35,973 nt of DNA, from the IMG/VR virus record IMGVR_UViG_3300037419_000651, positions 1 through 35,973 of that record, one strand, 5' to 3'. The DNA comes from a virus (taxonomy: Duplodnaviria; Caudoviricetes). This document shows, one piece after another, positions 853 to 33,549 of the stretch. The position numbers were made by a program, and so were the translations under genes. How positions within the stretch are numbered: the first letter of the stretch is position 1; each line of letters opens with the position of its first letter. The notes beneath the pieces were generated by a model. The model was given only the letters and a program-made list of their open reading frames with translations. It was not told the DNA's origin and ran no database searches.

Positions 853-859
853 TATTTAG
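853..859 (-). promoter_or_regulatory. T4-type late promoter motif CTAAATA
   Basis: About 35 nt upstream of the tail fibre ATG at 818. Confidence 0.7.
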
Positions 860-890
860 GCGTTTTCGACTTTTGGATAAAAACAACAAT

Positions 891-927
891 AAAAAAGGGA
901 TGGCAAATTGGAGTTACCCGCCATCCC
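891..927 (-). terminator. Rho-independent terminator
   Basis: GGGATGGC/GCCATCCC stem followed by T6 on the minus strand, downstream of ORF 1015..1458. Confidence 0.75.
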
Positions 928-1014
928 AATGGGCCACTATAGAGACAACCAATAGATTGTCGTTCAGGCCGGGTTCACTATGGACTAGCTTTATCCATTG
1001 GTTCGCCGCTTTGT

Positions 1015-1458
1015 TTAGTCGTCAGATGACTCGTCACTGCCATTTTCCCGATTGTATATAGCCAGTTCATCATTAAGGGCAGTCGTATACATATTCACCA
1101 ATTCGGACTTGGTGTATACATCCCGGATGTCTCGACCTTTCAGAGTAGCTTTTATCTGTTCGTCAAACTTTTGTTGAACCGTTCTCTCGACTTTCGTGTG
1201 CAACAAATATTCTTCAAGCTTCATCTTTAGTATTTTCAAAATGAATGTATCGGAAATGTATGTGGCATCGAGTTTGCTGATGTTTAAACGACCTTGTATA
1301 AAATTAACATGGTCAATCCGCTCACAATCAAACAATTCGTGACAAATTGCCGAAATAAATTCGTCAACATTGTTTGGCTGATATGGGAACCTTTCTCCAA
1401 GCAAATTGAGTGCCTGATTGATAGATGCCTTATCAAGTACGTTTGTGCCTTCATTCAT
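1015..1458 (-). CDS. Hypothetical alpha-helical protein (possible regulator)
   Basis: ORF; ATG at 1458 preceded by an AAGGA RBS; has its own TTGACA upstream and a terminator downstream. Confidence 0.65.
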   Translation of the reverse strand: MNEGTNVLDKASINQALNLLGERFPYQPNNVDEFISAICHELFDCERIDHVNFIQGRLNISKLDATYISDTFILKILKMKLEEYLLHTKVERTVQQKFDEQIKATLKGRDIRDVYTKSELVNMYTTALNDELAIYNRENGSDESSDD

Positions 1459-1590
1459 TCTAAAATATCCTTTTCTCAAATGTTTGCCTTATCTCTGACC
1501 ATCAGTGACAAACATCGTCTGATGCATACTAGATCATCTGTCAAGCAAAATTTGCGTTCTATATAATGAAAATGTAGAATGCCTACCTGT

Positions 1591-1613
1591 TTCTACATTT
1601 TAATTTTGTAGAA
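1591..1613. promoter_or_regulatory. Operator-like palindrome TTCTACA-N9-TGTAGAA (copy 1)
   Basis: Same arms and spacing at 19768 and 27079; extra half-site at 1573..1579. Confidence 0.8.
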
Positions 1614-1625
1614 TGCGAGAATACC

Positions 1626-1654
1626 TTGACTTAATCCGGCCTGAACCCTATCTT
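1626..1654 (+). promoter_or_regulatory. Sigma70-type promoter TTGACT-N17-TATCTT
   Basis: Near-consensus -35/-10 with a 17-nt spacer. Confidence 0.65.
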
Positions 1655-1659
1655 GGAAT

Positions 1660-1797
1660 TATTGGAAGCAAGCCATACATGAGGAATGAACGCAGATAGA
1701 CCGATGCAGAAATAATACTCCGATGATGCTTTTTTCTGAACATCATCGGCAACTTGGCACTGGAATGATTCCACCCGTCATCCAGTGTCCTTTTTTT
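1660..1797 (+). ncRNA. Candidate small RNA (about 140 nt)
   Basis: Lies between the sigma70 promoter and a terminator; internal hairpin CCGATGATG/CATCATCGG; no sizeable ORF. Confidence 0.45.
1756..1797 (+). terminator. Rho-independent terminator
   Basis: CACTGGA/TCCAGTG stem followed by T7. Confidence 0.7.
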
Positions 1798-4058: not shown

Positions 4059-5156
4059 TTAATTTCCTAAGATTTTCTTCGATGCACCAGCACCGAATTT
4101 TTGGTCAAACTGGTCAGATAGTGAAGGGTTGGCTTTCAATGCATCGATTGCAGCCTGTGGAACACTGCCTAGGTCAACAGCGCCAGTTTTTGCCGCCGCT
4201 CTTTCTTGGTCCCATTTATCAGCCGCTTCTCGTGCTGTTCCAAGGCCATCACGCAAGCTTTCAATAATGTTGGTTCTCATGTTTCTGGCCTGTTCAATCT
4301 TTTCTGTCGAACTTCCCGGCGCTGGCAGAAGCATCTTAGTGACATTATCAACTTCATCTTTCGTGGCCGCCGCACCTGTCGTGATACGAATGTAGATATC
4401 TGCCAGTTGTCGTGCTGATTGCTCTGCTAACTGATACTGACTTGATTTCATGAATTCCCCAAGCACTGGAACATTGCCAGCAATATTTTCGGGCAACGAT
4501 GTTAGAGCCTGATCGTATTCATTCAGCACTTCATTAGCTGGAACACCCAATTTGTAGAACATCAGGTTCTTAGATTGCCATTGTTCCTTAACGCCATCGC
4601 CAATGCTGATATTCTGACCGCCAGATTTTTTCCAATCTTCAATGGAACCTGTAAAACCATGGGCCTTTGCATACTCGTAATCTTTTTGGAATGCTGTCTG
4701 ATCTTCCGGTATGACTCTTTTCCATGAACCATCCGGCATCTTTTGATGCCCGTTCACAATTTGTGGTTCTTTTGTAATCTGTTCAACAGCGCTCTTGAAT
4801 GTTTCTGAATCAGCCGAATATGCTGCCGCATTTTCAGGGCTTACACCAAGCTTCACAAGATAGTTTGTTCGGGCTTGCAGAAGCTGTTCACGTTGGGCTT
4901 GTTCATTAGCCTTCTCGCCCTTAATCAGAGCCATTTTTTCACGATCTTGCTTGACCGCATTATAATTTTGAATGGCTGATAACAGTGCAGCCCCAAAACC
5001 ACCGTTAGGAGCATCAGCCCTTACAGCGCCAGCCGATGAAAAGCCGCCAGCCTGTGCAGTTCCACCAACATTAGGTGCTGCTAATACTTCTGCCAATCGC
5101 TGTCTTGGACTATCTGTGCGGCTATCAAAAAAATATGATGGATAATTTGTGGCCAA
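4059..5156 (-). CDS. Internal virion / DNA ejection protein
   Basis: 365 aa, A/Q-rich; C-terminal AIDALKANPSLSDQFDQKFG motif; synteny. Confidence 0.65.
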   Translation of the reverse strand: MATNYPSYFFDSRTDSPRQRLAEVLAAPNVGGTAQAGGFSSAGAVRADAPNGGFGAALLSAIQNYNAVKQDREKMALIKGEKANEQAQREQLLQARTNYLVKLGVSPENAAAYSADSETFKSAVEQITKEPQIVNGHQKMPDGSWKRVIPEDQTAFQKDYEYAKAHGFTGSIEDWKKSGGQNISIGDGVKEQWQSKNLMFYKLGVPANEVLNEYDQALTSLPENIAGNVPVLGEFMKSSQYQLAEQSARQLADIYIRITTGAAATKDEVDNVTKMLLPAPGSSTEKIEQARNMRTNIIESLRDGLGTAREAADKWDQERAAAKTGAVDLGSVPQAAIDALKANPSLSDQFDQKFGAGASKKILGN

Positions 5157-5157: not shown

Positions 5158-5439
5158 TTATTCTTCCTTGGGGTCTATATCTGTATTTATATTATCCGGC
5201 GTTGCATCATTATTCCTAGCGATTGCGTTCATAAAATTGCGGTCATCAAAGACAGCACCAAAAATATATGTTCCTATTAGTGAAACTCCGCCAGCTATCA
5301 GGGCAATGGACACTTGCTGAAACAGAACTGTATCCGAATTAGAAAAAATTATGTATGACAACCAAACGAAAATTACGATTAAACATAGGTCAAGCCGGAA
5401 TCTTCTTCTTTTCCATTCCGATTTTGGAATTTGTCTCAT
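5158..5439 (-). CDS. Putative holin (2 TM)
   Basis: Basic N-terminus, two hydrophobic segments, YIFGAVFDD motif, acidic tail. Confidence 0.6.
   Translation of the reverse strand: MRQIPKSEWKRRRFRLDLCLIVIFVWLSYIIFSNSDTVLFQQVSIALIAGGVSLIGTYIFGAVFDDRNFMNAIARNNDATPDNINTDIDPKEE
5184..5191 (-). promoter_or_regulatory. T4-type late promoter TATAAATA
   Basis: Embedded in the holin 3' end, about 28 nt upstream of the start at 5156. Confidence 0.65.
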
Positions 5440-5674: not shown

Positions 5675-7621
5675 CTATTGTCCAAAAAGTGAATTTAATA
5701 AATTTGTGAAACTAAAGCCGGTGGTTGGTGCAGGCAGTAGCGAACCGGCTCTAATGCGATTCTTGTTTGTAAAATCTCTAAGCTGATCTTGCTGTTGCAA
5801 TCTGTGCATATTCTTGGCCAAAATTTCATCGGCATAATATGGTGGAGCAACTTCCTGTGTTGGGTATTTTGCATCTGAACCAATACCACCACCGGCTAAT
5901 GCAGCAGCTAGTTTTGATTGCGCTGGTGTTTCTGGTGTTTCTGTCAATGGATATTTTGCATCAGAGCCAATGCCTAAACTGGTCACTGGTTTGGGTCTTT
6001 CAGATGGAACATCGACTGAAACAGGCAATAGGGCATAAGCCAGCTTTTCAGCCGGATTGGATGGAATTGGCTTAGACTGAATAGGCTGAACTGGTGCTGG
6101 CTTGCTGACAGGTGCTGGTGCATCTGGTTTGAATATATTTTCAATTGGAGAAAAAATATTTTTTATTCCCGTTGAAATGCCATCGCCAATATCCGAAACC
6201 ACGCCAGCAAAATTGGTGATCGGATTTTTGGTCTTATCCGCAATTGTCCATTGTGGTCTTAGAATGCCATCGTCTTGTTCTCTTGGAGAATGTTTTCTAT
6301 TGATTGGTCTAAGTTGGGAAATTGCATATTCCGTGTTTGGCCCAAATTTTCCATCCACGGTCAATGAATTGCCGTCCAATCCACGAGCGCCCAGATTATT
6401 AAGCGCTGCCTGTACAGCGGCAATTTCTTTATCAGATGAACCGGCTGATAGCGTTGGCGCTTTGTTCAGGGCTGCATCTCTAGCAGTCATGGTTCTGGGA
6501 CCGTCGATGCCATCAACCTTTAATGGGGAACCCCATAGGTCTTTGATGCCTGCATCGTTGAACGCAAGCTGCATGGCAGAAGGATCAAGGCTAGGGTTAG
6601 CCGTAGGAGTGCCTAGCACCGTTGTGCGGGCAGGGCGGATAGCCGAGTAGTCGCCGCCTAGAAATTGGTTGGTTGTCTGTAGTCGGGCTTGTTCTTCGGC
6701 ATCGCCGCCGCCGTAGCGCTCAAAGCGCCGCATACCAGCATTGGCACTGGCGGCATCCGTTGCATTGCGTAGAGCGTCACCAGCGGCCTTTTCTGTGGTA
6801 TTCAGTTCGTGGTTGAAAAATCCTACCTGTGCTTCCACGGATGCCGGATCGAGTCCTTGGGCCTTAGCCCATGCCCGCATGGCGTCCTGCCGGTCGCCGT
6901 TCCACTGGAACAAGCCATAGGAGCGTTCACCGGCATTATTGGTAGCGTTTGGATTGAAGCCGGATTCTCGGCTCATATTGGCAAGAATTGCTGCCTTGGC
7001 GTGTTCTGACCATCCTTGCTGGTCTAGCAGCGAATTGACCTGATCAAAGACACTCTGTTGGGTCTTATTCAAGCCAGAAGGCGTGATTGAACTGCCTGAT
7101 GGATTATCGAGTAAGCCAACGGATTCACCGGCTGATTGGGCTGCATTTTTGGTTATGCCCCATGCCTTGGCCCATTGGTCACTTAGACCATTTTCCCAAC
7201 TGCCTGCTTTCATTCCGAGTGCCGAACCGGCCAAATCAAAGTGCATTAAATCCATTGCACCATATTTGCCGCCTTTGCCGATGGAGCCGGAAAAATATCC
7301 GCCCCAACGCAAATCTTTGGCTAGATCGGGATATAGCTGTTGCTGGATGGAGCGCACATGATTTGCAAATTTTTGATAAATTCCAAAATTTTTTGAATCT
7401 TGGTAATCAGGAATTTCCTTACCGTCTTTGCCAATCAAAGTGATATCGACGGCATTGCCCTTGCCGTGCTGGCGTTTGTCGCCAACTCGTTTGCCTGATT
7501 TTATGTTGACTTTTGAAATGGATGGATCGTCATATGATACGATTGCCAACTGCATCAAATCTGCAAGTCTTGGATCGACTCCACTAAACGATTTACCGGG
7601 ATTGTAACCTAACTCTGCCAA
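5675..7621 (-). CDS. Multidomain peptidoglycan hydrolase (M15-like peptidase + phage tail lysozyme + PG-binding repeats)
   Basis: SGKR...HGKGNAVDI...DLMHF; ANMSRESGFNPNA...GLFQWNGDR; VDGIDGPRT and VDGKFGPNT motifs. Confidence 0.75.
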   Translation of the reverse strand: MAELGYNPGKSFSGVDPRLADLMQLAIVSYDDPSISKVNIKSGKRVGDKRQHGKGNAVDITLIGKDGKEIPDYQDSKNFGIYQKFANHVRSIQQQLYPDLAKDLRWGGYFSGSIGKGGKYGAMDLMHFDLAGSALGMKAGSWENGLSDQWAKAWGITKNAAQSAGESVGLLDNPSGSSITPSGLNKTQQSVFDQVNSLLDQQGWSEHAKAAILANMSRESGFNPNATNNAGERSYGLFQWNGDRQDAMRAWAKAQGLDPASVEAQVGFFNHELNTTEKAAGDALRNATDAASANAGMRRFERYGGGDAEEQARLQTTNQFLGGDYSAIRPARTTVLGTPTANPSLDPSAMQLAFNDAGIKDLWGSPLKVDGIDGPRTMTARDAALNKAPTLSAGSSDKEIAAVQAALNNLGARGLDGNSLTVDGKFGPNTEYAISQLRPINRKHSPREQDDGILRPQWTIADKTKNPITNFAGVVSDIGDGISTGIKNIFSPIENIFKPDAPAPVSKPAPVQPIQSKPIPSNPAEKLAYALLPVSVDVPSERPKPVTSLGIGSDAKYPLTETPETPAQSKLAAALAGGGIGSDAKYPTQEVAPPYYADEILAKNMHRLQQQDQLRDFTNKNRIRAGSLLPAPTTGFSFTNLLNSLFGQ

Positions 7622-7642
7622 ATTTCTGAAAACTCCAAAATT

Positions 7643-8722
7643 TTATTTTTTTTCAGGTTTTGGTTTCAGGTTTTCGGTTCTCTTATCAAGAGCCTTAACA
7701 GCAGCCATTGTATTGCCAAGCATGGAGACAACATCAATTGTTTCGCCATCGCCACCAAACTGTTTGGCCCAATCTTCGGCCATCGGTCCAGTACGTTCCT
7801 CTGGAACATTGAATAGAGCCTGTGCCAGAGACTTATATTTGTAGTCAGAGATTGGCAATTTCTCCATTCTTTTGAGAACGGATTCGCCTTCCACCGGGCG
7901 AAAATCTTCTTTATATTTCTTCGAGGATTTAGCTGCTAACGTAGCGCCAGCACCCAATATTCCAGCCATGCCTTGATTCTGTGCATTGTAGGCGTTGACT
8001 TGGGCATTATAGGAATTCCAATAGTTTCCGCTTACATCGGTGTTAGCGATGGCTGATGGTATCTGATTGGCAAAGCCGGGTTGCTGTACGCCGGGGGTTG
8101 CACCCTGAAACAGATTCATTTCGTCAAAGGGTAGGCGTCTTTCCTGTAGCTTGTTAGCCAAAAGGCGCTGGAACTCATTCCCGGCTGCTAGATCGGCATC
8201 CTGTGCCATACCTGTTACAGTTTCATTCTTGGCTTTTTCAAAGCGATTCATCTCATTATTGTAAATTTCCGAACCAATCGGAATGCCACGTTCTGATAAG
8301 GTTGCCTGTAGCTTTTTCTGTGCATCGTCAAATTCAGATTGCCGCAAGCCCATCTGCCTATCAAACATGGTCTTAGAAATGGCTGATGTATCAGGAATTT
8401 CGTCCAGCGAAAAACTTTCAGTTGGGAACTTGGCAAGCTGGTCAAGCTGGTGATTGGCCATCCCATTAGAGACGGCCAATTGCCGGGTTATAAAATCCTG
8501 TACTTCTGGACTGAATGTCAGTGTCTGACCTGTAGGCACAAGATCGGATTTGCCTACATTTCGAGGGTCATTCGGATCAAACAAGAATGTAGAGGAACCA
8601 AATGGCGAAAACAAATTGTATGCATTTAATCGAGCATTTTCACGGCCCGTAGCAATGTTAGATTTTGTCTGTTCGGCAGACACTTTCACCGGATCGGGAG
8701 CGGAAGGAGCGGAACCACCCAT
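7643..8722 (-). CDS. Virion/ejection protein with C-terminal S74-like intramolecular chaperone domain
   Basis: MGGSAPSAPDP start; KSSKKYKEDF...LPISDYKYK...GPMAEDW...coiled coil. Confidence 0.65.
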   Translation of the reverse strand: MGGSAPSAPDPVKVSAEQTKSNIATGRENARLNAYNLFSPFGSSTFLFDPNDPRNVGKSDLVPTGQTLTFSPEVQDFITRQLAVSNGMANHQLDQLAKFPTESFSLDEIPDTSAISKTMFDRQMGLRQSEFDDAQKKLQATLSERGIPIGSEIYNNEMNRFEKAKNETVTGMAQDADLAAGNEFQRLLANKLQERRLPFDEMNLFQGATPGVQQPGFANQIPSAIANTDVSGNYWNSYNAQVNAYNAQNQGMAGILGAGATLAAKSSKKYKEDFRPVEGESVLKRMEKLPISDYKYKSLAQALFNVPEERTGPMAEDWAKQFGGDGETIDVVSMLGNTMAAVKALDKRTENLKPKPEKK

Positions 8723-8749
8723 TTAGTACCTCGTTATATTATTATCGTA

Positions 8750-8756
8750 TATTTAT
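8750..8756 (-). promoter_or_regulatory. T4-type late promoter motif ATAAATA
   Basis: About 28 nt upstream of the ATG at 8722. Confidence 0.6.
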
Positions 8757-9232
8757 TTATGTTTTTTGTTCGGTCCACGTGGCCTAGCAGGCTGTAACAG
8801 CTTGTCTTTTGGCCAGCCTTTTTTCAGTCGGCTTAATAGCGTAGCCGGTATCAATCCATTATCATTGGCAACATCAGCGTAATGGCGGCGCTTACCGTCA
8901 ATGTACATATAGATTGACGTGCGTCTGTTTCTCTGACTTTCCAGCCATGTCACCCAAGCGCAATTTTCCGGCGAATAGCCTTGGTCATTGTTAAGCCGGT
9001 CTAAGACATATCCATCTGGTCTTGGTCCCATGTCGGCAAAAAAATTATCTCTGCCATCTTTCCCACGCCAACGGTCACAAACTGTAATTCCACGGCCACC
9101 ATAATGGCCAAAAAATTTATGATTTGGATTAAGGCATCGTGCCATCATATTGTAATAGACCTGCCGCAATGTAAGCCAATCTCTGTTTTCAGCGTAATAA
9201 TGCTTTGAATATTCTTCTCTTGAATGCTTCAT
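8753..9232 (-). CDS. HNH-family homing endonuclease-like protein
   Basis: MMARC...YGGRGITVCDRW...FFADMGPRP...LDRLNNDQGYSPENCAW motifs. Confidence 0.8.
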   Translation of the reverse strand: MKHSREEYSKHYYAENRDWLTLRQVYYNMMARCLNPNHKFFGHYGGRGITVCDRWRGKDGRDNFFADMGPRPDGYVLDRLNNDQGYSPENCAWVTWLESQRNRRTSIYMYIDGKRRHYADVANDNGLIPATLLSRLKKGWPKDKLLQPARPRGPNKKHK

Positions 9233-9263
9233 TTTAAATCTCCTTTTTATATGAAGTTATATA

Positions 9264-9271
9264 TATTTATA
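9264..9271 (-). promoter_or_regulatory. T4-type late promoter TATAAATA
   Basis: Exact consensus about 32 nt upstream of the ATG at 9232. Confidence 0.7.
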
Positions 9272-9298
9272 AAATTGGAGATTTTACCGTTTCTTGTC

Positions 9299-9751
9299 TT
9301 ATAGATTTTTAGATAGCCATTTGTTGTCACGTCGCAGCATCGAATAGATTAGAATATCTTCGCCGGGGCCAGCCCGATCACGGAGTCGACCTTCTAATTC
9401 AAATCCAAATTTTTCGATTAGTTTGATTGATTGATTATTATTTGGATGGACAGATGCGACAATTCGGCAGCAATCAAGATGGACAAATGCAAAGACTAGA
9501 AAGAGTCTGATGGCTCTACGAGTCATCCATACTTTGCCATCACCAGCCAAAGATATTTCGGCTTCCATCCCATGAGATAAAATTTTGATGTCATGGAACA
9601 CAAGGCCAGCTATCAACTGACCGTCATCATTTACAGCGCCGATTGTTCTGTAGAAATCTTCGCTAATTTCGCAGGGGAATTGGCGTCTTATCTGTTCAGT
9701 GACAAAATCTTTTATTTTTTCTTTTGGTTCTAGAATGTATGTGACTGACAA
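9299..9751 (-). CDS. GNAT-fold (RimJ-like) acetyltransferase-like assembly protein
   Basis: VHPNNNQSIKLIEKFGFELEGRLR motif; usual position after the podovirus nozzle gene. Confidence 0.8.
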   Translation of the reverse strand: MSVTYILEPKEKIKDFVTEQIRRQFPCEISEDFYRTIGAVNDDGQLIAGLVFHDIKILSHGMEAEISLAGDGKVWMTRRAIRLFLVFAFVHLDCCRIVASVHPNNNQSIKLIEKFGFELEGRLRDRAGPGEDILIYSMLRRDNKWLSKNL

Positions 9752-9754
9752 TGA

Positions 9755-12453: not shown

Positions 12454-12461
12454 TATTTATA
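12454..12461 (-). promoter_or_regulatory. T4-type late promoter TATAAATA followed by GATTC
   Basis: Exact consensus, intergenic, co-oriented. Confidence 0.7.
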
Positions 12462-18894: not shown

Positions 18895-18908
18895 TTTTCC
18901 TTATGTTG

Positions 18909-19790: not shown

Positions 19791-19801
19791 CGCATTTTTC
19801 C

Positions 19802-21802: not shown

Positions 21803-21816
21803 AGAAAGGAAAAAAT

Positions 21817-22328: not shown

Positions 22329-22348
22329 CAACAAAAGGAAATAAACAT

Positions 22349-22693: not shown

Positions 22694-22696
22694 GAA

Positions 22697-23822: not shown

Positions 23823-24076
23823 CATACACTATCTTTCATCCAGAACATATGTCCATCTTGAAGAAGAAAATTGAGAAGATAGAGGAAAAGGGATTCAAGG
23901 TATCAGTTTCCGAACATGTCAATTTGGATGCAGCCATAATCACCATTTGGAAGGATGATGAGTCCGCAACTGTGATGATATCAGGGCTAGATATTATGCG
24001 GGCAGGAAATGAATTTGGGTCATTGGTTGATAAAAAGCTAGGAACAGCAATCAAGCAATGGGCTGCATCTATATAG
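23819..24076 (+). CDS. Hypothetical protein
   Basis: ATGA overlap at 23819 with AAAGGA RBS. Confidence 0.65.
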   Translation: MTYTIFHPEHMSILKKKIEKIEEKGFKVSVSEHVNLDAAIITIWKDDESATVMISGLDIMRAGNEFGSLVDKKLGTAIKQWAASI

Positions 24077-24173
24077 AAAAGGCAGTTTTCATATTTTTAT
24101 AAATTTGCGCAAGCCTGCATGACTTTTCTTTTCTCTTTCATTTCCGATTCGATGGTCAATCCCAATAGCCCTG

Positions 24174-24803
24174 TCAGTCCCTTGCCAATATCCGGCTGAC
24201 TGTCTTCATATCCATGCCGATTGCCTTGCCGATCTTGGCATAGCTAAGACCATCAGCCCGCATTGCCTTCATCTGCCCAAGGATGGCTTGCTGTTCAGGG
24301 TTAGCCACCAACTGGCCATCACTGACTTGATAGCCAAAGGGCACACGGCCACCAAGATACCGGCCATTGCTGGCCTGATACCGCTTAGTCTCCCTAATCC
24401 TCTCCCTGATCCTGTCACGCTCTTGCTCGGCTACAGCCGATAGAATGGTGAACACCAGCTTGGATATCCCATTGCCGCATACATCGCCGCCAAGGTCTAT
24501 CATGTGCAGTTCAACGCCAATGGCTTTCAATTCCTCTAGGGTAACGAGTGCATCAGCAGCCGAACGAAACATGCGGTCCAGCTTGGCAGTGATGACGATA
24601 TCACCAGCTTTCAGCACGGATATCAGCTTATTGCCTTCTGGCCTGTCAGACAGGGGAATAGAGCCGCTTACAGCCGTTTCCAGATAGGTGTGGGTAATGT
24701 CCCAACCCTTCATCATGGAATAGCCTGTGATGGCTCTGCCTTGGGTTTCTAGGCCATTGTCTTGCTGATTGGTGGAAACCCGACAATACGCATAAACGGC
24801 CAT
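24174..24803 (-). CDS. Small serine recombinase (resolvase/invertase family)
   Basis: YCRVST catalytic motif, KLDRMFRS, C-terminal HTH. Confidence 0.92.
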   Translation of the reverse strand: MAVYAYCRVSTNQQDNGLETQGRAITGYSMMKGWDITHTYLETAVSGSIPLSDRPEGNKLISVLKAGDIVITAKLDRMFRSAADALVTLEELKAIGVELHMIDLGGDVCGNGISKLVFTILSAVAEQERDRIRERIRETKRYQASNGRYLGGRVPFGYQVSDGQLVANPEQQAILGQMKAMRADGLSYAKIGKAIGMDMKTVSRILARD

Positions 24804-24818: not shown

Positions 24819-24863
24819 TTATGGCTGTGTATCTACAAGGCCATAAACTAACCAATGCCATAA
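24819..24863. promoter_or_regulatory. Candidate res / autoregulatory site
   Basis: TTATGGC-N14-GCCATAA (28 bp) plus a third GCCATAA, directly upstream of the resolvase. Confidence 0.5.
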
Positions 24864-24875
24864 GGATTTACAAGG

Positions 24876-24915
24876 AAAAAGGCAGCTACCAGAAAGGATT
24901 CAAAGGGTAGCTGCC
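24876..24915 (-). terminator. Rho-independent terminator
   Basis: GGCAGCTACC/GGTAGCTGCC 10-bp stem followed by T5 on the minus strand. Confidence 0.8.
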
Positions 24916-24997
24916 AGCGGATTGCAGTCGCAATCGGCACCCTGATTATAAGAAGGAGAAAACATGTAGGGCTAGAACTTAGCCCCATCAGGGTATG
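24876..24997 (-). ncRNA. Candidate late-promoter-driven small RNA (about 120 nt)
   Basis: Bounded by TATAAATA and a terminator; nested stems; single-stranded CAUGUUUUCUCCUUCUUAU. Confidence 0.55.
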
Positions 24998-25001: not shown

Positions 25002-25009
25002 TATTTATA
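25002..25009 (-). promoter_or_regulatory. T4-type late promoter TATAAATA
   Basis: Exact consensus, intergenic. Confidence 0.65.
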
Positions 25010-25237: not shown

Positions 25238-26965
25238 TCATCCAGCCTGTTTGGAGATTGTAACAATCTCTCTCATATCCTGATTGTTGCCCATGTTTAT
25301 GACCTTGAATGCCTTCGTTGGGTCATTGCTGATCGGGAAGAACACTCGTGTTGCCCCGCCTCTAAACCTGACTGTTATCCTCGTATCAATGCCATCCTTA
25401 TCGATGCCATCCTTGTAGACATTGGCCATGCGAATATCGCCTGCCTTCTCTAGCCTGCTTTGAATGGTGCCCTGTACCCGGACCAATCTGATTTCTTCAA
25501 TGATGCTCCTGATATGTTCAGCAGCCTTTGCCCTAAGCCCATACAGTTCCTGTTCAGATACATCATCTGGAAATTTGAATATCTTTTTATCATTCATTCC
25601 AGCAATACGATGATCTTCCTGAACTGATAGGCGTTCATCATTCAGCAGCTTTATCCGTTCATCCAGTTCATTGATTGCCTTCTGATAGCCATTCAATTTC
25701 TCACTGACCATATCAATGGCGAAATCATTATGTTCGAACAGTGTCAGCAATCTATTGGCCTTCTGCTGGATATCAGCCTTCTCTCCCTCTAGCCGGTCAA
25801 TCTTTGTAGTCAGTTCAGATAGCTTTGAATTGGTTCCACCATTGATGACTGACTCTAGGTCAATCTCATTCACAAAAGAAAGCATGGCTTGTTCAAAGCG
25901 ATTGTATGACCATTGTCGGCTATCACAGGAACCATTCTTGATCCCATTGCAATAGATATGGCCACGGCCCTTGTTCGTCCACATTGGGCCACCGCAACAA
26001 TCACACTTGATTAATCCGGCAAAGATATTCGTTAATTTGCTTCCCTTCCTACCTTTGCCTACAGACCTTCTCCGTTTGATTGCTGACAAATGTGCATAAA
26101 ACATTTCTTCTGAAATGATGGCTGGATAATATCCCTTGATTGGTTCACCAACTGGCATTCTTTCTGATGCATTGTTCAAACGCTTCTTTGGCTGATATTC
26201 TCCAATCAGGGTTCTTTGTGTCATCTGCAATTGCAGATTGTTATATTTCCATTCCTTTGTTCCATTTAAAGTTGGAATCTTTTCCTGATTGAATGTCTTG
26301 GCAATTTTATAAAGGCCATATCCATCAGCAGACATTTGGAACATGCGGCGAATGATGGCTGCTTTCTTTTCATCGACTATGAAAGATTTCCTATCCTTGG
26401 ATAGTGACAGCCAGCTTGGGCATGTTCCAGTCAGTTTGATTCCATCATCGATTGCTTTCTTTCTTTTGCCTTCCCAATTGGCTTTACCCCGCTGTCTCTT
26501 TTTTTCTGATTCCTCATGGGCCATAGACATTTTGATGATGGAACCAAACAGTGTCATCATGTCCATCTGACCAGTGCGATATTCGATACCGTCTTGAAGG
26601 GTAACGACGATAATTCCTTTATTGACGATGGAAAGGAATGTGTTCGCCGCCACTGCGGGTTGTTGCCTCGATAGACGGTCATGGGCCTCTACCAGCAGAT
26701 ACGAGCCGGGTTTGATATCCCCATTGTCGATTGCCTGAATGAATGTTCCGAGTGCCGAACCATCAGACAGGTTCTTGCCTGTATAGGCTGACTTGCCTTC
26801 ATCCCGCATGGTTTCGACCAGTTCCAAGCCGTGTTCGGCTGCATATCGTTCAGCAGCTTCCATCTGGCGACGGTTGGAATCACCATCGGATTGAATGGCT
26901 GATGACCAGCGAATGTACGAATAGGCCAGCGGCTTGGGGGTAGGGGATTTTGATAATGAAAACAC
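25238..26965 (-). CDS. Large serine recombinase (integrase)
   Basis: YIRWSS catalytic motif, DRLSR, recombinase domain YYPAII, zinc ribbon CDCCGG...C...C, coiled coil. Confidence 0.93.
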   Translation of the reverse strand: MFSLSKSPTPKPLAYSYIRWSSAIQSDGDSNRRQMEAAERYAAEHGLELVETMRDEGKSAYTGKNLSDGSALGTFIQAIDNGDIKPGSYLLVEAHDRLSRQQPAVAANTFLSIVNKGIIVVTLQDGIEYRTGQMDMMTLFGSIIKMSMAHEESEKKRQRGKANWEGKRKKAIDDGIKLTGTCPSWLSLSKDRKSFIVDEKKAAIIRRMFQMSADGYGLYKIAKTFNQEKIPTLNGTKEWKYNNLQLQMTQRTLIGEYQPKKRLNNASERMPVGEPIKGYYPAIISEEMFYAHLSAIKRRRSVGKGRKGSKLTNIFAGLIKCDCCGGPMWTNKGRGHIYCNGIKNGSCDSRQWSYNRFEQAMLSFVNEIDLESVINGGTNSKLSELTTKIDRLEGEKADIQQKANRLLTLFEHNDFAIDMVSEKLNGYQKAINELDERIKLLNDERLSVQEDHRIAGMNDKKIFKFPDDVSEQELYGLRAKAAEHIRSIIEEIRLVRVQGTIQSRLEKAGDIRMANVYKDGIDKDGIDTRITVRFRGGATRVFFPISNDPTKAFKVINMGNNQDMREIVTISKQAG

Positions 26966-27248: not shown

Positions 27249-27578
27249 ATGGCTAAAAGTGCGTTGGAACAGATTCAGGAACTGACTGCCCAGATGGAGA
27301 AAATCAAGGGCGAGGCTTTTAAAGAGGCATTGGCCAAGGCCGAAGCTGCCGTTAATGAATTGAACGCTCTTGGTTACACTTATCGGCTGTCACAGTTGGA
27401 AGATCGGCCATCCAAGACCAATAGGGCTTCTGGCACTCGTGCTCCTATCGTTTGCAAAGTCTGTAATTTCGCTACTGTGCCCGGTCATAATGCCCGCCTG
27501 CATCAGAAGCATCAGGGCAATGACCACAAGCCGTTCACGGATGGAGAATTGGCTGCTTTGGGACTAACCAAAGCCTGA
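27249..27578 (+). CDS. Protein with H-NS-like N-terminal coiled coil and C-terminal Cys2His2-type zinc motif
   Basis: ALEQIQELTAQMEKIK...AVNELNALGY; CKVC-x8-H-x4-H; AAGGAAGG RBS; monocistronic. Confidence 0.6.
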   Translation: MAKSALEQIQELTAQMEKIKGEAFKEALAKAEAAVNELNALGYTYRLSQLEDRPSKTNRASGTRAPIVCKVCNFATVPGHNARLHQKHQGNDHKPFTDGELAALGLTKA

Positions 27579-27638: not shown

Positions 27639-30600
27639 CTACTGTTTCCATTGGGTTCCATTCCAATGGCGCATGGTCCTTCGTTGCCATACCGTTCCTG
27701 TCCATTCTTTCATAGTTCCTCGTTTCCAGTCAGAACCCGTCCAATATTTGGTTTTGCTGAAACCACCTTCGGAAAGCAAGCTATCGTCATCCTCATAGCC
27801 GTTGAATGCAGCACGAGTTGTGACAATGACAGTGGTCAATATCGTATCGTCATCATCCGATAGATCGGCTTGACCATGGACATACAGGCTACCAGTGCCT
27901 GTAGCTGTGTCGTCATCATCATTGCTGGTGGATTTGCCAGCAATAACTATCTTGGTTGGGGCAATCAGATAGTCGCCCATTTCGATGATATCGGCTGCAC
28001 CATGGCTATGCAGGCTTGCCGAACCCGACAATGTATCATCATCTTCCGAATGATCTACCGTGGCATGGATAGCGCCAAACGGAATGGCAAAGGCGCTTAC
28101 CGTATCGGATGCATCAGCCTTCGAATAATTGGCAGATATTTTTATCTTCGATGCACTGGATACGGTATCACTGGCTTCTGTCAGTGTCGCATTCGCTCTG
28201 GTGGTCTTATAAGCTGTTGCTGAAACTGTATCGCTGGCTTCTGTTGAATTCGAATTTGCCTTGATCGGCAGGGCGGCAGAAGATGCAACGCTATCATTGC
28301 TTTCCACGACATTCAGGCTTGACCTATTGGTGCTGATTGCCCCACCGCTAGGATAGTCACCTTGTTCTGTCAGAATGGCAGCGGCTTTTATCGAAACATT
28401 GGCAGCAGACAAAGCCGTATCGTCGGCTTCTGATGCAGTCAGATAACCGGACACAGATGGTACGGCCAATGCCAACGGAATATCATCATCTTCTGTGGCC
28501 GTGAAATTTGCAGAAATTTGCAGGCTTGCTGCCGCTGTCAACCAATCCGATGTGCTGGTCTTTTGCAGTCTGCCGCCAGTCTCCAAACCGGTAATTGCAG
28601 ATATGGAATCTGCATCCTCATCCAAATTCGATGCACCATTCAGTTTCAGGCTTGATGCACTCGTGCTGGTATCACTGGCTTCTGATAGGGATGCCTGACC
28701 TGAAATTTTTATATAAGCCGCTGCATTGACGGTATCAGCCGCATCATTTCCATTCAGGCCAGCAGCCAATTGTACATTAGTCGTTGCTGATATTGTATCA
28801 TCAGCTTCTATCGCAAAAAGACTACCGGCAGCGATTGGCTTGGATGATGAAAGCAGAGTGTCGGAATCTTCCGAAACATTCAGGCTACCAGTGTTCTTTA
28901 GATTGGCAGATGCCGAGATGGTATCGGATGCTTCTGTTTTGGATAGGTTTCCAGAAAGTTTTATAACAGAATTGCTGGATACCGTATCATTATTTTCTTG
29001 TCTCGTAAGATTGCCGACAAGTTTCAGATTGGCAGATGCAGAGACGGTATCGGATGCTTCTGCCATATTCGCATTGGCAAAAGCTTCTGAATTTTTGATT
29101 GTAGATGATGAATCTAATGTATCACTGGCATCTGATAGGGAAGCCTGTCCAACGATCTTGATAACGGCAGTGCTTGCTAGGCTATCATCCTGTTCAAGTT
29201 TTAGTTCTTGCGTCGAATATAGATAGTCGCCAAACGGAGCGGCAGCTAGTTTAGAGCCATCAGAAGAAGATGCTACAGCAAGCCAGTTCTTTGCATCGGC
29301 ACTGATTTGGTTCCATGTGACACCAGAATCCGTTGACGAATAGATATAATCAGAAGTACCCGTAGCCGCATATAAAGTGGTTCCATCCGCAGAAGATGCA
29401 ATGGAATTCCATGTCTTTGAACCGGAACCTGTTTGTTGCGTCCAAGTCGCACCAGAGTCTGTAGACGTGTAGATATAACCGGGAGACGTGCCAGCTACCA
29501 GCTTTGTACCGTCTGCCGAAGATGCAACAGATTTCCAATATTGCGCATAAGTTCTGGTAGTCCAAGTGACACCGGAATCTGTTGACGTGTAGACATAAGC
29601 GCCATTGTCCACGGCAACCAATTTTGTACCGTCATCCGATGATGCAATGGATTGCCATAATCTGGAACCAGCAACAGTTCTTTGTGTCCAAGTGACACCG
29701 GAATCTGTTGACGTGTAGATATATCCGCTCTGAACGGCAGCAGCTAATTTTGTTCCATCGGCGGATGATGTAACTGATATCCAGTTTCTAGAACCGGATG
29801 CAGCTTGCAATGTCCAATTGGCACCAGAATCTGTTGACGTGTAGATATAGGATGGTGACGCAACACCAACTAATTTTGTTCCATCAGCGGATGATGCGAT
29901 GGACCGCCACGTCCTTGAACCCGATGTAAATCTGGCAGTCCATGTGTTTCCATAGTCATCTGATGTGTAGATATACGAGCCGCTTACACCGGCAGCTAAT
30001 TTAGAGCCATCAGCAGAAGATGCTATGGCTTGCCAATTTCTGGAACCGGAATTCAGTCTCTGTTGAAGTGAAGAAGAATCCTCAACACGGCCATATGCAA
30101 TTTTACCGCCGCTGGATGACAGAGTATCAGCCGCATCATTGATTGAAGAAGAAGCCTGAATTTTTGTTAGGAATGCATCACTCTGGAAAGCACCAGATTG
30201 GAATGCTTCACTTTTTGCAGTAGCCCCATATCGAGATAGGGCTAGAAGCGTATCGCTTTCCGAACCACTGGCAGATGCTGAAATTCTTGGATTGGCTTTG
30301 GATGATAGCTGGTCACTATCTTCATTGATCGAGCCGGAACCGTTCGAAGGATCGGGAAAGGGGGCTAAGGCCAGCAGAGCCGTACACCAGCCGCCAGAAG
30401 CCACGCCAGTTACCGTCTTGGTTCCTGTATCGCCCGCTGTAGCCTGTGGCTGGTAATGCAGCCATATCGATAGGCCGGTTGTTCGGTAGTCGTTATCCGT
30501 GCCTGATGTCGTATCTTCGAAAGCTGTAGAGAAGCCGGATTCCATAATGACGGCATCAGAAACATCCAGTTCGCCAGCCATCAGGATCATGCAGTTATCG

Positions 30601-30989
30601 ACGGTAGTCGTTATAGCCGCATGTGTGGCGCTGGTGGCCGTTCCTACGGTTGTCGCACCAATCTGGTCAAAAGGGGAACCATCGGTTTTGCAGCCACGGA
30701 AAGCGGCCATAGCAGCCATGATGTTACTTGCCGCTGATGGACTATAGGTAACTGTAGCGGTTGGAACCGTGCCGCCGCTATATCGACACCAGAAAACTTT
30801 TAGATCACCGGTAACATCGATAACTTCGGTCCAGCCTGCACCCATAGAGGCATTCAGGCCGGTATTTCTACAGCCTGCAATGACAATAAGAATGTCGTCT
30901 GCTTGGATTCCGGCTGGTGCGGCTGGTGTTAGATTTGCTCCACTACCGGCAGTCGCTTTGGCACCAGCACCAACAAAGCTAATTGCCAT
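27639..30989 (-). CDS. Large repetitive tail fibre/adhesin with a 7-blade beta-propeller
   Basis: 1116 aa; seven W..[IV]ASSADG.KL...YIYTSTDSG repeats; many E-x-S-D-T-V-S-A stalk repeats; W-rich C-terminus. Confidence 0.75.
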   Translation of the reverse strand: MAISFVGAGAKATAGSGANLTPAAPAGIQADDILIVIAGCRNTGLNASMGAGWTEVIDVTGDLKVFWCRYSGGTVPTATVTYSPSAASNIMAAMAAFRGCKTDGSPFDQIGATTVGTATSATHAAITTTVDNCMILMAGELDVSDAVIMESGFSTAFEDTTSGTDNDYRTTGLSIWLHYQPQATAGDTGTKTVTGVASGGWCTALLALAPFPDPSNGSGSINEDSDQLSSKANPRISASASGSESDTLLALSRYGATAKSEAFQSGAFQSDAFLTKIQASSSINDAADTLSSSGGKIAYGRVEDSSSLQQRLNSGSRNWQAIASSADGSKLAAGVSGSYIYTSDDYGNTWTARFTSGSRTWRSIASSADGTKLVGVASPSYIYTSTDSGANWTLQAASGSRNWISVTSSADGTKLAAAVQSGYIYTSTDSGVTWTQRTVAGSRLWQSIASSDDGTKLVAVDNGAYVYTSTDSGVTWTTRTYAQYWKSVASSADGTKLVAGTSPGYIYTSTDSGATWTQQTGSGSKTWNSIASSADGTTLYAATGTSDYIYSSTDSGVTWNQISADAKNWLAVASSSDGSKLAAAPFGDYLYSTQELKLEQDDSLASTAVIKIVGQASLSDASDTLDSSSTIKNSEAFANANMAEASDTVSASANLKLVGNLTRQENNDTVSSNSVIKLSGNLSKTEASDTISASANLKNTGSLNVSEDSDTLLSSSKPIAAGSLFAIEADDTISATTNVQLAAGLNGNDAADTVNAAAYIKISGQASLSEASDTSTSASSLKLNGASNLDEDADSISAITGLETGGRLQKTSTSDWLTAAASLQISANFTATEDDDIPLALAVPSVSGYLTASEADDTALSAANVSIKAAAILTEQGDYPSGGAISTNRSSLNVVESNDSVASSAALPIKANSNSTEASDTVSATAYKTTRANATLTEASDTVSSASKIKISANYSKADASDTVSAFAIPFGAIHATVDHSEDDDTLSGSASLHSHGAADIIEMGDYLIAPTKIVIAGKSTSNDDDDTATGTGSLYVHGQADLSDDDDTILTTVIVTTRAAFNGYEDDDSLLSEGGFSKTKYWTGSDWKRGTMKEWTGTVWQRRTMRHWNGTQWKQ
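29210..30060 (-). repeat. Coding tandem repeats (about 120-126 bp) for Asp-box/BNR propeller blades
   Basis: Recurrent GAATCTGTTGACGTGTAGA at DNA level; boundaries approximate. Confidence 0.8.
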
Positions 30990-31007
30990 TTATTAAATTA
31001 TCCTAAG

Positions 31008-32240
31008 TTAAAATTTCTGCCAGCGATATCCGCATATTGTTGTTTCATTTTCGCAGCTTGAAGTTCCCGCCTTCTTTTGAATTCCAAATCCATGACCAAA
31101 ATAATTTGTTGCGCCGGTAGGGATATTGGTTGTGTGTTGTGTTCCTGTGAATGTCCAAGTTGCGCCATAATCTGTCGAATAGAAAAATTCGACATTCGTT
31201 CCATCGCCATTCACGAAAGTTCCGAGATAAAACAAAGTTGTCGTGTCAACTGTCAAAGGACTATCGGTATAAGTTGCGACTCCGCCTTTCATTGTTGTAG
31301 TTCGCCATGTGGTGGAATTTGGCCGGTCGTACACCCAGCCGATCATGTTTTGTAAATTTCCGGCTGCACCATCAAAGAAGCCTGCCATCGATAAAAATTC
31401 GTTGGTTGAGTCAGAAAGTTGCAGGAGAAATGAACTGCAAACTGACAATAGAGAACCGTAACCACCATGAATGGTCCAATCGGTACTAACAAATGCACGT
31501 CCAGAAGTTGTTGTTCCTGTGTACGTAGAAAGAATCGAATGCTGCAATCCTTCAATGGTGATGGCACCGTTTGCAAAGCCGCCCGAATTGCTTCCGTTAT
31601 TCCAGAACCAAGCACCAGAGCCAGCATCGCCAACCATTGGGATATCAAAAATGTTTGAAACAGGACCAATTCTGTTCCCACTCAAAACATTTAAATTTGT
31701 TCCATTAAAATATATTTCAATTTCGTCACCCGGCATCAGGAAAACAGGGATGCCTTGAACATTAGTCGGCAGGTTCATTCTGTTTGCTGCTAGGCTAGAA
31801 GCGCTGTTACGCTCTAGGATAATCATTCTGGCGGATGCAGAAACTTTATCCGTGCCATTGACCAATCGAACACGCTTGCCGGTTTGCCAGCCTGTGGTAT
31901 CGATACCAGTTATCTTTATGCTGTTTGTCGGCTTGATAATTATGGTGGACAGAATTCCACTCTTGCCGCTGATACCAGTGGCGTAATTGTTCTGATTGGC
32001 TGATGGTACAAGCGTGACAACATCAGCGGCATCTACAGCCAACGTTGAACCCGACAAAGACAGGCCGGAACCAACGGATATTTCTTCCATTGGTCCAGTG
32101 CCAGCCGATGCACGGCCTGCAATCATTCCACCTTGAATGGAGGTTTCTAGATCAGCGTTCCAATCTGATGGCTGGATTAAATTGGTATTTCCAGAATCAG
32201 CAACGCCAGAAACCTTTGCGTGCTTGATCTTGATTGCCAA
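31008..32240 (-). CDS. Tail fibre/spike protein
   Basis: Probable start is TTG at 32240 (MAIKIKHAKVSGVAD...QPSDWNA); beta-rich C-terminus. Confidence 0.7.
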   Translation of the reverse strand: MAIKIKHAKVSGVADSGNTNLIQPSDWNADLETSIQGGMIAGRASAGTGPMEEISVGSGLSLSGSTLAVDAADVVTLVPSANQNNYATGISGKSGILSTIIIKPTNSIKITGIDTTGWQTGKRVRLVNGTDKVSASARMIILERNSASSLAANRMNLPTNVQGIPVFLMPGDEIEIYFNGTNLNVLSGNRIGPVSNIFDIPMVGDAGSGAWFWNNGSNSGGFANGAITIEGLQHSILSTYTGTTTSGRAFVSTDWTIHGGYGSLLSVCSSFLLQLSDSTNEFLSMAGFFDGAAGNLQNMIGWVYDRPNSTTWRTTTMKGGVATYTDSPLTVDTTTLFYLGTFVNGDGTNVEFFYSTDYGATWTFTGTQHTTNIPTGATNYFGHGFGIQKKAGTSSCENETTICGYRWQKF

Positions 32241-32242
32241 TT

Positions 32243-32647
32243 TTATGAATTTCCAGAATTGAGAACAAAAGTGGTAACAGTGAAAGCCTGACCAGTGGCA
32301 AAAGACGTATTGTCCACGGTCATATCTCCACCACCACCAGTGGCAGTAACGGTTCCCTGCATGTGGCAAACGCCGGTTGAGTCATAAAGTCTAAAGTGAC
32401 CAGCCGTACCAGAAGCATCGGCGGAAGTGTCTTCCCATGTGCCAGCCTTGGCCTTGGAACCGCTAGAGGCAGCAGCCATCCAGTCGGCGGGCAGGGCACA
32501 GGTAGCCAGCACTGTACCAGCATTAGCAGCGGCACAGGATGCAGGGGCAGCGCCCGAACGGATTGTTAGAGTTGGAGAAGTGCCAATTGCTGTTTCAACA
32601 GCATCAAGTTTGGCATTACGAACGGTCGTACTATATTGAAGGGCCAA
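32243..32647 (-). CDS. Virion structural protein (fibre-associated)
   Basis: RNAKLDA...ADASGTAGHFRL...QGTV motif; A/T/G-rich. Confidence 0.7.
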   Translation of the reverse strand: MALQYSTTVRNAKLDAVETAIGTSPTLTIRSGAAPASCAAANAGTVLATCALPADWMAAASSGSKAKAGTWEDTSADASGTAGHFRLYDSTGVCHMQGTVTATGGGGDMTVDNTSFATGQAFTVTTFVLNSGNS

Positions 32648-32681
32648 AATTATCCTACCTAAAAAAGATTGTTGATGAATC

Positions 32682-32688
32682 TATTTAG
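32682..32688 (-). promoter_or_regulatory. T4-type late promoter motif CTAAATA followed by GATTC
   Basis: About 35 nt upstream of the start at 32647. Confidence 0.7.
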
Positions 32689-32705
32689 GTATTTTTGATA
32701 TTCTG

Positions 32706-32921
32706 CTACTTTGTCAGAGACGAAAAGAAATTCTGAATGGAGTCCCAGAAAGCAAGAAGTGTGATGATACCGCCAGCAGCTACCAAAAGAACATTTCTGA
32801 AATATTTTCCAAGCCAGCCCAAGGCTTCCTGCTTCTTAATCATCTCACGCATGATTTCAAATTCTTTGCGTGGCAGCTTTACATCCACTAGTTCATCTTC
32901 TTTGTTAATATCATCAATCAT
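32706..32921 (-). CDS. Small membrane protein (lysis-cassette associated)
   Basis: Single C-terminal TM segment; follows the spanins. Confidence 0.6.
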   Translation of the reverse strand: MIDDINKEDELVDVKLPRKEFEIMREMIKKQEALGWLGKYFRNVLLVAAGGIITLLAFWDSIQNFFSSLTK

Positions 32922-33196
32922 GCGCCGGAACCCCTAAATTTTATCGAATCAGCTAATGCCTTATGTTTATCTCCACATACAATTAGATTTTTTCTGTCAA
33001 TCATCCAATATTCTTCAACTTCCATTTGGGCCAATGCCCTTTCTGGAATCTTGATTGGTCGCTTGCAATTTTCCATCAGCTTTGAATCAAAATAGGGTTC
33101 TACACTGGTAGGCGGAAGAACCCTTACTGATGTCGTTTTGCAGCCAGCCATTAAAAGTGCAATGAATGCAATTAGAAATATCCTATAATTCATCAT
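32918..33196 (-). CDS. o-spanin (Rz1-like lipoprotein)
   Basis: Lipobox LMAGC; C..P...W..DR..L..C...H pattern. Confidence 0.75.
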   Translation of the reverse strand: MMNYRIFLIAFIALLMAGCKTTSVRVLPPTSVEPYFDSKLMENCKRPIKIPERALAQMEVEEYWMIDRKNLIVCGDKHKALADSIKFRGSGA

Positions 33197-33549
33197 CTGA
33201 CTCTATTTATTCTCTCGCTGGATTTACCAGATATCCCGCATTTATCTTTATCAGGGTCAGATGCAGCTTCGGCCTTATTCTGTTCCATCAGTTCATCAAT
33301 TTTGCTTTCGGCATCCTGTAGCTGTTCGATTAGAGTGGCTTCATGTTGTTTCGCTTTTTTCTCGCTCTGAATCAGCTTTTCCAACTGGCCAGAATATTCT
33401 TGTTCCATCTGAATTTTGATTGCAGAAATTTGAGTATCAGCTTTGGCAGAACCATATGAAAAGCCGATACCGTAGGCTTTCAGAAGGGCTAGAGCGAATA
33501 GGATTATTCCAGCGATGGTCATCCAAATAGAAGGGATTTTGAACGGCAT
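33193..33549 (-). CDS. i-spanin (Rz-like)
   Basis: N-terminal TM, coiled coil, C-terminal Cys; ATG at 33549. Confidence 0.75.
   Translation of the reverse strand: MPFKIPSIWMTIAGIILFALALLKAYGIGFSYGSAKADTQISAIKIQMEQEYSGQLEKLIQSEKKAKQHEATLIEQLQDAESKIDELMEQNKAEAASDPDKDKCGISGKSSERINRVR
33204..33210 (-). promoter_or_regulatory. T4-type late promoter motif ATAAATA followed by GAGTC
   Basis: Just upstream of the o-spanin start, inside the i-spanin 3' end. Confidence 0.4.

Follow-up and report, generated by a model that had tools for sequence, protein, structure and literature searches.

A tailed phage wired to T4-type late promoters: a candidate self-packaging parasite of a T4-like phage

Virophages proper (Lavidaviridae) have a double jelly-roll capsid, a eukaryotic host and a giant virus as helper, and the bacterial satellites P4, the phage-inducible chromosomal islands (PICI, with their capsid-forming kind, cf-PICI) and the PICI-like elements (PLE) take capsids and/or tails from theirs. 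The late promoters of P4 respond to the helper's Ogr activator, and ICP1, the helper of PLE, counters with CRISPR-Cas. The T7 islands, attributed to Chen and Schneider in 2006, are reportedly integrated elements whose promoters suit the transcription machine of a lytic phage, T7 RNA polymerase, and which have no genes for a virion. Among lytic phages the T4-like ones are the best studied; the full 8-bp consensus of the T4 late promoter is TATAAATA, the box lies at −13 to −6 and the transcript starts about 6 nt after it. We describe here a podovirus-type genome, IMG/VR record IMGVR_UViG_3300037419_000651, analysed as one stretch of 35,973 nt (the window), in which the core of this consensus, TAAATA, heads nearly all of the gene blocks. 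Judging from sequence, the phage is likely to be a self-packaging parasite of G411 or a near relative, G411 being a large T4-like phage that we found in public viral contigs and that occurs in the same metagenomes, and thus a bacterial counterpart of the virophages.

The integrated copy of mavirus is latent until a late transcription factor of its helper CroV acts, and the helpers of virophages may carry a sequence-based counter-defence, MIMIVIRE (PMC6723459, in excerpt). Like the window, mavirus has its own virion and shares its helper's late promoter (PMC6723459, in excerpt); it differs in being eukaryotic, with an unrelated virion and a giant-virus factory, whereas the window is a bacterial tailed phage whose predicted reader is a sigma factor on the host RNA polymerase, its latency and activation being predictions only. 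With a tailed-phage head, portal and terminase, and a T4-like phage as the helper, the window falls outside the Lavidaviridae; what it has in common with virophages is a late promoter shared with a co-occurring larger virus, G411, that encodes the reader. The Streptomyces satellites MiniFlayer and MulchRoom have their own capsid, no key replication genes, a virulent helper and a base composition shifted towards that of the helper; MulchRoom is thought to use helper tails, and MiniFlayer attaches to its helper and has no integrase (PMC10690885, in excerpt). The excerpted text of that source describes no promoter capture for either. The window resembles them in its own capsid, the absence of key replication genes, a predicted dependence on a virulent helper and a composition that leans towards that of the candidate helper; it is set apart by its complete set of head and tail genes, by its integrase and helicase, and by the T4-like nature of the candidate helper; neither satellite is among the best 30 of 54 capsid matches. 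P4, PICI and PLE are likewise integrase-bearing elements triggered by a helper, but the window encodes capsid, portal, terminase and tail genes of its own. Broadly taken it would be a satellite virus, its novelty lying in what it takes, transcription instead of parts, and in the family of the helper. In the literature searched, mostly open-access papers without their supplements, we found no account of a satellite or prophage under the control of a T4-type late sigma factor.

The ends of the window overlap by 127 nt, giving a circle of 35,846 bp that is classed as complete with terminal repeats, and its matches come from soil and rhizosphere metagenomes, with no RNA run among those listed. TAAATA is present on the strand given at all 15 coordinates listed in the earlier note on this DNA, and a 16th copy, absent from that list, lies at 8754 (−). 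The base before it is A in 11 copies and C in five. The full 8-mer TATAAATA, which had been described as frequent, is complete in 6/16; the remainder have the form [AC]TAAATA, which is also that of the boxes at G411 virion genes (full 8-mer in 0/9 listed sites). The boxes are, by position and strand:

853-858, minus: TAAATA before a tail-fibre/collar gene (ATG 818), at the head of a block that wraps the origin down to 33193
1799-1804, plus: TATAAATA before an HNH-like gene, 1869-2312
5184-5189, minus: TATAAATA before 4059-5153
8750-8759, minus: two overlapping TAAATA before a virion gene, 7643-8722
9264-9269, minus: TATAAATA before an HNH gene, 8753-9232
12454-12459, minus: TATAAATAGATTCA, then a strong hairpin (z −4.3), before 11991-12377 and the adaptor/tail block
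14840-14877, minus: two TAAATA (14840 and 14872) before the putative scaffold and major capsid genes, kept in the relatives L002, L011 and L012
17396-17401, minus: CTAAATAGATTCA before the portal gene
19726-19840: divergent TAAATA pair, 19726 (minus) towards the terminase genes and 19835 (plus) towards the helicase, with a 10-bp dyad in between
21595-21600, plus: CTAAATA before ATG 21620 and a small-gene block at 21.6-24.1 kb
25002-25007, minus: TATAAATA before a structured 137-nt stretch and the resolvase
32682-32687, minus: CTAAATAGATTCA before 32243-32647 and the large tail-fibre genes
33204-33209, minus: ATAAATA before 32918-33196

With first-pass gene starts, 13/16 copies lie no more than 100 nt 5′ of a co-oriented gene (background 0.062); the figure rises to 15/16, at box-to-start distances of 5-76 nt, once the boxes at 853 and 21595 are added by way of the next in-frame ATG (818 and 21620), two starts that were picked post hoc with the motif already seen. 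The claim that every copy stands about 5-70 nt before a gene or small RNA is broadly borne out for these 15; from the box at 25002 the distance to the resolvase is 199 nt, but a structured stretch that may be a small RNA follows it directly. TAAATA ranks first among all upstream hexamers of the window, above the Shine-Dalgarno words. Counted per gene, the sense motif occurs in 13/44 upstream regions and the antisense motif in 0/44, and the AT-matched null that the earlier note had proposed returned a strong positional enrichment, dinucleotide shuffles of the same 44 regions giving 4.0 ± 1.8 (maximum 10 in 1000). Coding interiors, taken as open reading frames (ORFs) minus their first 15 and last 60 nt, hold no copy on either strand, against 6.6 and 6.7 expected from synonymous-codon shuffles. 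Since the total of 16 equals the Markov-model expectation and the placement is non-random, the signal is one of position, not abundance. Only three gene heads have no box (a 147-aa ORF, the integrase and a 109-aa ORF), in keeping with the view that nearly every operon head is covered. As in T4, these are short AT boxes before co-oriented genes without a −35 element (the best match to the −35 consensus is at most 4/6), and at the +1 position predicted from T4 geometry there is a purine at 15/16 sites, A at 14 of them.

The 137 nt directly after the box at 25002 (24860-24996, minus) are highly structured (z −6.3) and form a candidate small RNA or resolvase leader; an Rfam scan of the window gave no match.

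From the 263 ORFs listed, 44 were selected and scanned against PHROG and Pfam. The gene types found are terminase, portal, Mx8-type capsid, SU10-type adaptor, tail lysozyme, fibres, Rz-like spanin, HNH genes, serine resolvase, large serine integrase and one helicase-type gene; one protein of the virion block matches a PHROG labelled amidase. In the family scans none of the 44 ORFs was identified as a repressor, an antiterminator or a stand-alone endolysin. The presence of capsid, portal, terminase, adaptor, tail lysozyme and fibre genes agrees with the proposal that the element would build its own complete virion, for which this set may suffice. The principal features are:

12766-13722, minus: major capsid protein, Mx8/BUCT555-like (phrog_9953; 32-35% to cultured phages)
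15203-17359, minus: portal (phrog_12082)
17410-19543, minus: terminase large and small subunits (family scans)
5675-11982, minus: podovirus-type tail/ejection block with tail lysozyme, virion proteins, a GNAT-like protein and the SU10-type adaptor (family scans)
19905-21587, plus: superfamily 2 (SF2) helicase-fold protein, the only replication-type gene found (phrog_2467)
24174-24803, minus: small serine resolvase (PF00239)
25238-26965, minus: large serine integrase, no upstream TAAATA (PF07508, PF13408)
27249-27578, plus: 109-aa coiled coil with a Cys2His2-like domain according to a structural model, no upstream TAAATA; conserved in the relatives G001 and G008
1015-1458, minus: 147-aa orphan, no upstream TAAATA; not found in G001
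27639-30989, minus: long tail-fibre-like protein with repeats common to G411 (protein at most 51%; 29-47-nt DNA patches at 86-95%)
32243-33570, minus: block common to G411 (134-aa virion protein 82%, small protein 71%, 92-aa protein 53%, Rz-like spanin 38%)
5158-5439, minus: small hydrophobic protein, 75% identical to a G411 protein

The observation that no ORF resembles a sigma factor or DNA polymerase survived closer searches: six-frame searches of the window gave no match to gp55, sigma-70 region 2, gp33, PolA or PolB, the same five were not matched in the relatives G001-G003, and tblastn of Aeh1 and JSE gp55 against the window reached a best E of 0.29, in short pieces only. For a temperate phage it is nothing unusual to have no DNA polymerase, and this is no evidence in itself. 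T4 late promoters, short boxes without a −35 element, need gp55, and their activation by gp33 and the gp45 clamp keeps pace with replication (PMC2988020, in excerpt). The window shares with that system the short AT box without a −35 element, for which G411 encodes gp55, gp33 and gp45, and departs from it in a box that is mostly a 6-7-nt core and in a genome without detected gp55, gp33 or gp45.

The same wiring recurs among relatives. Capsid relatives of at least 58% identity keep boxes at orthologous gene heads (L002 7/7, L011 5/6, L012 2/4, L072 2/3, L071 0/0). Podoviruses of the Mx8, ppBjS10J-1 and BUCT555 type have capsids 32-35% identical to that of the window and the same head-tail gene types, but metagenomic relatives of this capsid type at 53% identity or less are without the wiring, only 3/65 of their TAAATA copies being upstream (101 loci, 915 kb, some of them duplicates). 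Most of the latter are GC-rich; L038, with 32% GC, nonetheless has 0/19 upstream. In whole genomes the upstream fraction of TAAATA is 5/10 in G001, a complete relative without the helicase, 16/18 in G002, a distant relative, 10/12 in G003, 2/3 in G004, 9/11 in G005, 5/11 in G008 and 7/10 in G009, against 0.07-0.32 for control words of the same letters in those genomes (0.18-0.32 in G001, G002, G003, G005 and G009); counts for L146-L148 were left out, their starts being extrapolated from internal matches. Box wiring is found in unrelated virions, namely the siphoviruses G002 (classed as a provirus) and G005 and the podovirus G003, and since the wiring is common to the near clade and to unrelated kinds of virion, it speaks for a reader from outside that all of them share.

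The left end of G003 (L136, 367-1638) carries an HK97-type capsid gene (phrog_10) in 58% GC DNA that flanks the box-wired podovirus, which suggests insertion beside another prophage or a gene-transfer-agent cluster.

G411 came to light when public contigs were aligned to the window: a 39-nt piece at 34031-34069 is flanked by a repeat that is present in two viral contigs, one of them G411 (242,456 bp, complete, with terminal repeats). It is a T4-like myovirus with gp55, gp33, gp45, PolB, clamp loader, and helicase, primase, loader and single-stranded DNA-binding protein (gp41/61/59/32), together with a gp23-type capsid and a gp20 portal; in the searches that left the window blank it scored for gp55, sigma region 2, gp33 and PolB, though not for PolA. 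Its capsid is nearest to that of Ochrobactrum phage vB_OspM_OC (62.7%), with cyanophages equally close, so that a Rhizobiales host for G411 is only a lead. The Ochrobactrum phage is among the sigma-encoding jumbo phages (PMC7824862, in excerpt). The earlier note had called for a co-occurring T4-like phage with the same late motif, and G411 is such a phage, TAAATA being its top upstream hexamer (70/227). The word precedes 9/16 of its virion/lysis genes vs 3/14 of its replication genes, some of the gene labels being our own reading; for the Ochrobactrum phage the figures are 6/10 and 0/7. The box at the G411 tail-sheath gene has a 12-mer in common with four window sites. Homologues common to the window and G411, at 38-82% identity, are tail, lysis-region and small proteins, and contigs bearing the G411 array described below were present in 4/4 metagenome runs compared. 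At third codon positions of the capsid gene the G+C fraction of the window (0.44) lies near that of G411 (0.37), and five ordinary relatives have 0.82-0.95, a composition that would fit adaptation of the window phage to the helper or to a different host. In G411 (L152-L164), 24 tRNA genes were called.

The repeat that flanks the shared piece belongs to the only CRISPR array of G411, which consists of two repeats and two spacers with CTAAATA upstream. Both spacers match the window:

34033-34067, plus: protospacer 1, 35/35 to the first G411 spacer (34/35 in G008), 5′ flank GAC (TTC in G008)
8232-8266, plus: protospacer 2, 30/35 to the second G411 spacer (33/35 in L002; right end of the spacer inferred), 5′ flank TTG

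We take TTC to be the protospacer-adjacent motif (PAM) of type I-C, to which the G411 repeat presumably belongs. The change from TTC to GAC also alters one residue, and PAM escape by the window is a possible but unproven explanation of it. The spacers do not match the rest of G411 (best 23/35), and 48 spacers of other viral arrays match neither the window (best 22/33) nor any of the compared elements (best 24/33). Among viral contigs no other TAAATA-driven array with this repeat was found beyond G411 and its fragment G412, and Cas7 (PF05107), the one Cas family searched for, was not found in G411. Virus-borne mini-arrays target close relatives that compete for a host (PMC6858448, in excerpt). 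The G411 array resembles those of that account, which have one or two spacers, in its two spacers, a putative promoter of its own and another virus as its target, and may also resemble them in having no adjacent cas genes; in contrast to the close relatives targeted there, its target is an unrelated small phage wired to G411's own late promoter. A 300-kb viral contig (L179, 401-432) holds a single repeat of the same CRISPR family, and the sequence adjacent to it matches none of the compared elements.

The window helicase has an SF2 fold that is XPD/DinG-like at low TM (top solved folds 0.36-0.42). It has 177 matches in cultured phages at 24-27% identity, of which the best 40 all belong to T4-like or jumbo myoviruses (large T4-like phages or Atu_ph07). 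At uncultured helicase loci, 16/19 helicase starts have a sense TAAATA no more than 250 nt away, where 2.7 are expected and the antisense count is 2 (2/21 loci were skipped, their flanks being too short); with six near-copies merged the count is 11/14. Dyads 5′ of the helicase gene, counted without a null model, occur at 9/16 loci, and as their sequences are unrelated to each other we make no claim of an origin. The window helicase is a likely replication initiator; a role as a UL9-like origin-binding protein was considered and found unsupported, the top solved folds being XPD/DinG. The elements marked by uncultured helicase homologues include the whole phages G002, G003 and G005, with their unrelated virions, and small cassettes of alphaproteobacterial chromosomes. 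In Terasakiella, Sphingopyxis, Caulobacteraceae, Aestuariivirga, Microvirga and Rhodospirillales (L056-L060, L062-L066, L070), TAAATA precedes the helicase, and several of these cassettes lie near resolvases or restriction/defence-like genes. They are possible virion-less members of the same class, and the T7 islands are nearer to them than to the window.

In Aeh1 (L130, 3995-6018) and JSE (L131, 4001-6044) an unannotated helicase-fold homologue lies between 55.2 and gene 55, directly before gene 55. Members of the family of about 800 aa hold an extra domain (alignment A1, columns about 600-800) that the window protein does not have and that, by motif reading, we take to resemble an archaeo-eukaryotic (AEP-type) primase.

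We regard it as quite probable that late transcription of the window phage depends on a T4-like helper. The boxes would be read by RNA polymerase that carries the gp55 and gp33 of a T4-like phage in the same cell, and G411 or a near relative is the likeliest such phage. On supercoiled plasmid DNA the gp55 polymerase gives basal transcription (PMC2988020, in excerpt), so foreign circles should be readable. Alone, the phage would inject and integrate by means of its serine integrase, one of the three box-less genes, and would then remain off without needing a repressor. When a helper reaches its late phase the TAAATA boxes would fire, switching on the genes for the virion, the lysis region and the helicase. 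Replication would begin with the helicase opening the circle and would probably be carried on by the helper replisome; late transcription would be activated in turn by the gp45 clamp that this replisome loads. The phage would then make its own virions in competition with the helper, and the G411 spacers point indirectly to a cost for the latter. On the other side, the G411 mini-array, behind its own TAAATA box, would yield guide RNAs late in infection, with which a host Cas complex would cut the parasite.

Three other explanations have to be weighed. The window may be an independent temperate phage in which TAAATA is read by a phage or host protein that escaped recognition, G411 being a mere competitor for the same host. 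Eighteen of the 44 ORFs are unannotated, mini-arrays do aim at independent viruses (PMC6858448, in excerpt), and the extended downstream pattern of the window boxes is unlike that of most G411 late sites; most of the unannotated genes, however, are themselves behind TAAATA, and of the box-less three one is the integrase, the 147-aa protein has no counterpart found in G001, and the 109-aa protein, which joins a coiled coil to a zinc-finger-like domain, has its homologue in TAAATA-poor DNA. The same word drives unrelated podo- and siphoviruses and bare islands, and we consider an independent phage unlikely. Slightly less likely still is a facultative exploiter, with a weak lytic cycle run from host sigma-70 promoters and the boxes reserved for a surge on T4-like co-infection. 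Sigma-70-like sites are present, such as TTGACT-17-TATCTT at 1626, but they are no commoner than in shuffles (18 vs 20.6; 5 vs 5.4), and while 6/16 boxes contain TATAAA, near a −10 element, the boxes are without a −35 consensus; four dyads resemble operator sites and the phage is present without a visible host flank, yet no repressor or antiterminator family was matched. That the word is a chance product of AT-rich intergenic DNA we hold to be extremely improbable: this DNA is 64% AT and words of the same letters are also enriched upstream (about 0.2), but that does not account for the excess over matched shuffles, the absence of antisense and coding-interior copies, the boxes kept at orthologous places in relatives, or the AT-rich capsid relative L038 with none of its 19 copies upstream.

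Several observations nevertheless tell against dependence on a helper such as G411. What the spacers, common genes and co-occurrence prove is that the two phages share a host and are in conflict, and because mini-arrays are known to hit independent competitors (PMC6858448, in excerpt) a spacer match does not establish dependence. The four co-occurrence runs may be one campaign, and two of them may be the source of the window DNA. Only about a third of the G411 TAAATA copies are upstream of genes, and A at −4 is found in 15/16 window boxes and in 2/9 G411 late sites. With 18/44 ORFs without a PHROG match, two of which were looked at further, there is room for a novel activator. G411 has no homologue of the window helicase, and as G001 has no helicase either, the replication step is the weakest link. 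As to integration, the contig alignments listed show no host flank for the clade and no close integrated relative was present among 401 genomes. The label 'prophage' in the earlier note accordingly goes beyond what the sequence shows: the genome is circular and complete, and with no host flank among the six contig alignments listed it is better called a temperate-looking phage. The rest of that model, in its promoter placement, the lack of a reader found in the window and a co-occurring T4-like phage with the same word, held up as far as sequence can tell.

If the phage is indeed a parasite of this kind, then a class of 'cryptic' prophages and islands responds to a definite trigger, recognisable in the DNA by six letters, there is a named helper-parasite pair with a CRISPR arms race, some phage mini-arrays are anti-parasite defence, not superinfection exclusion, and the virophage lifestyle arose independently in bacteria. 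We lean, with fair though far from complete confidence, towards the existence of bacterial virophages, a class at once widespread and polyphyletic that would take in integrating phages as well as minimal islands, ranging between full podo- or siphoviruses and helicase-plus-resolvase cassettes. Its members would stay silent without a repressor until a T4-like late sigma factor appears, would protect the host population by draining the helper, and would be fought by late-expressed helper mini-arrays, with PAM change on the parasite's side.

As to the host, plasmid matches to the integrase are at most 36% identical and uninformative; 401 genomes of the order of Kaistia give two distant capsid matches (48% and 38%), with 0 and 1 TAAATA in 4 kb; and blastn of 19.7-27.6 kb against cultured phages gave no match. 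The one homologue of the 109-aa protein among 401 alphaproteobacterial genomes lies in 40 kb of 66-67% GC DNA with 2 TAAATA. The model of this protein consists of a long helix and a small Cys/His domain with no sigma likeness found; fold searches with it matched generic coiled coils only, at Z about 5, and Foldseek returned nothing at E 0.001. In the ESM Atlas the 109-aa and 147-aa proteins fell into clusters without a name or had no match of use (TM at most 0.39).

A dyad, TTCTA[CT]A-N9-TGTAGAA, occurs in the window as follows:

1557-1613: two copies, at 1557 and 1591
19768: one copy
27079: one copy

It adjoins the three box-less genes and sits between the divergent boxes 19726/19835, is kept at two orthologous sites in G008 and was not found in G001 or G411. 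It is a candidate operator or helicase-binding site. Loose contig ends at 18779-18821 were set aside, as they lie inside a conserved terminase ATPase motif. At 21800-24170 and 30992-32268, contigs of other runs skip or replace small-gene blocks, the resolvase and one fibre gene, which marks these segments as variable accessory regions.

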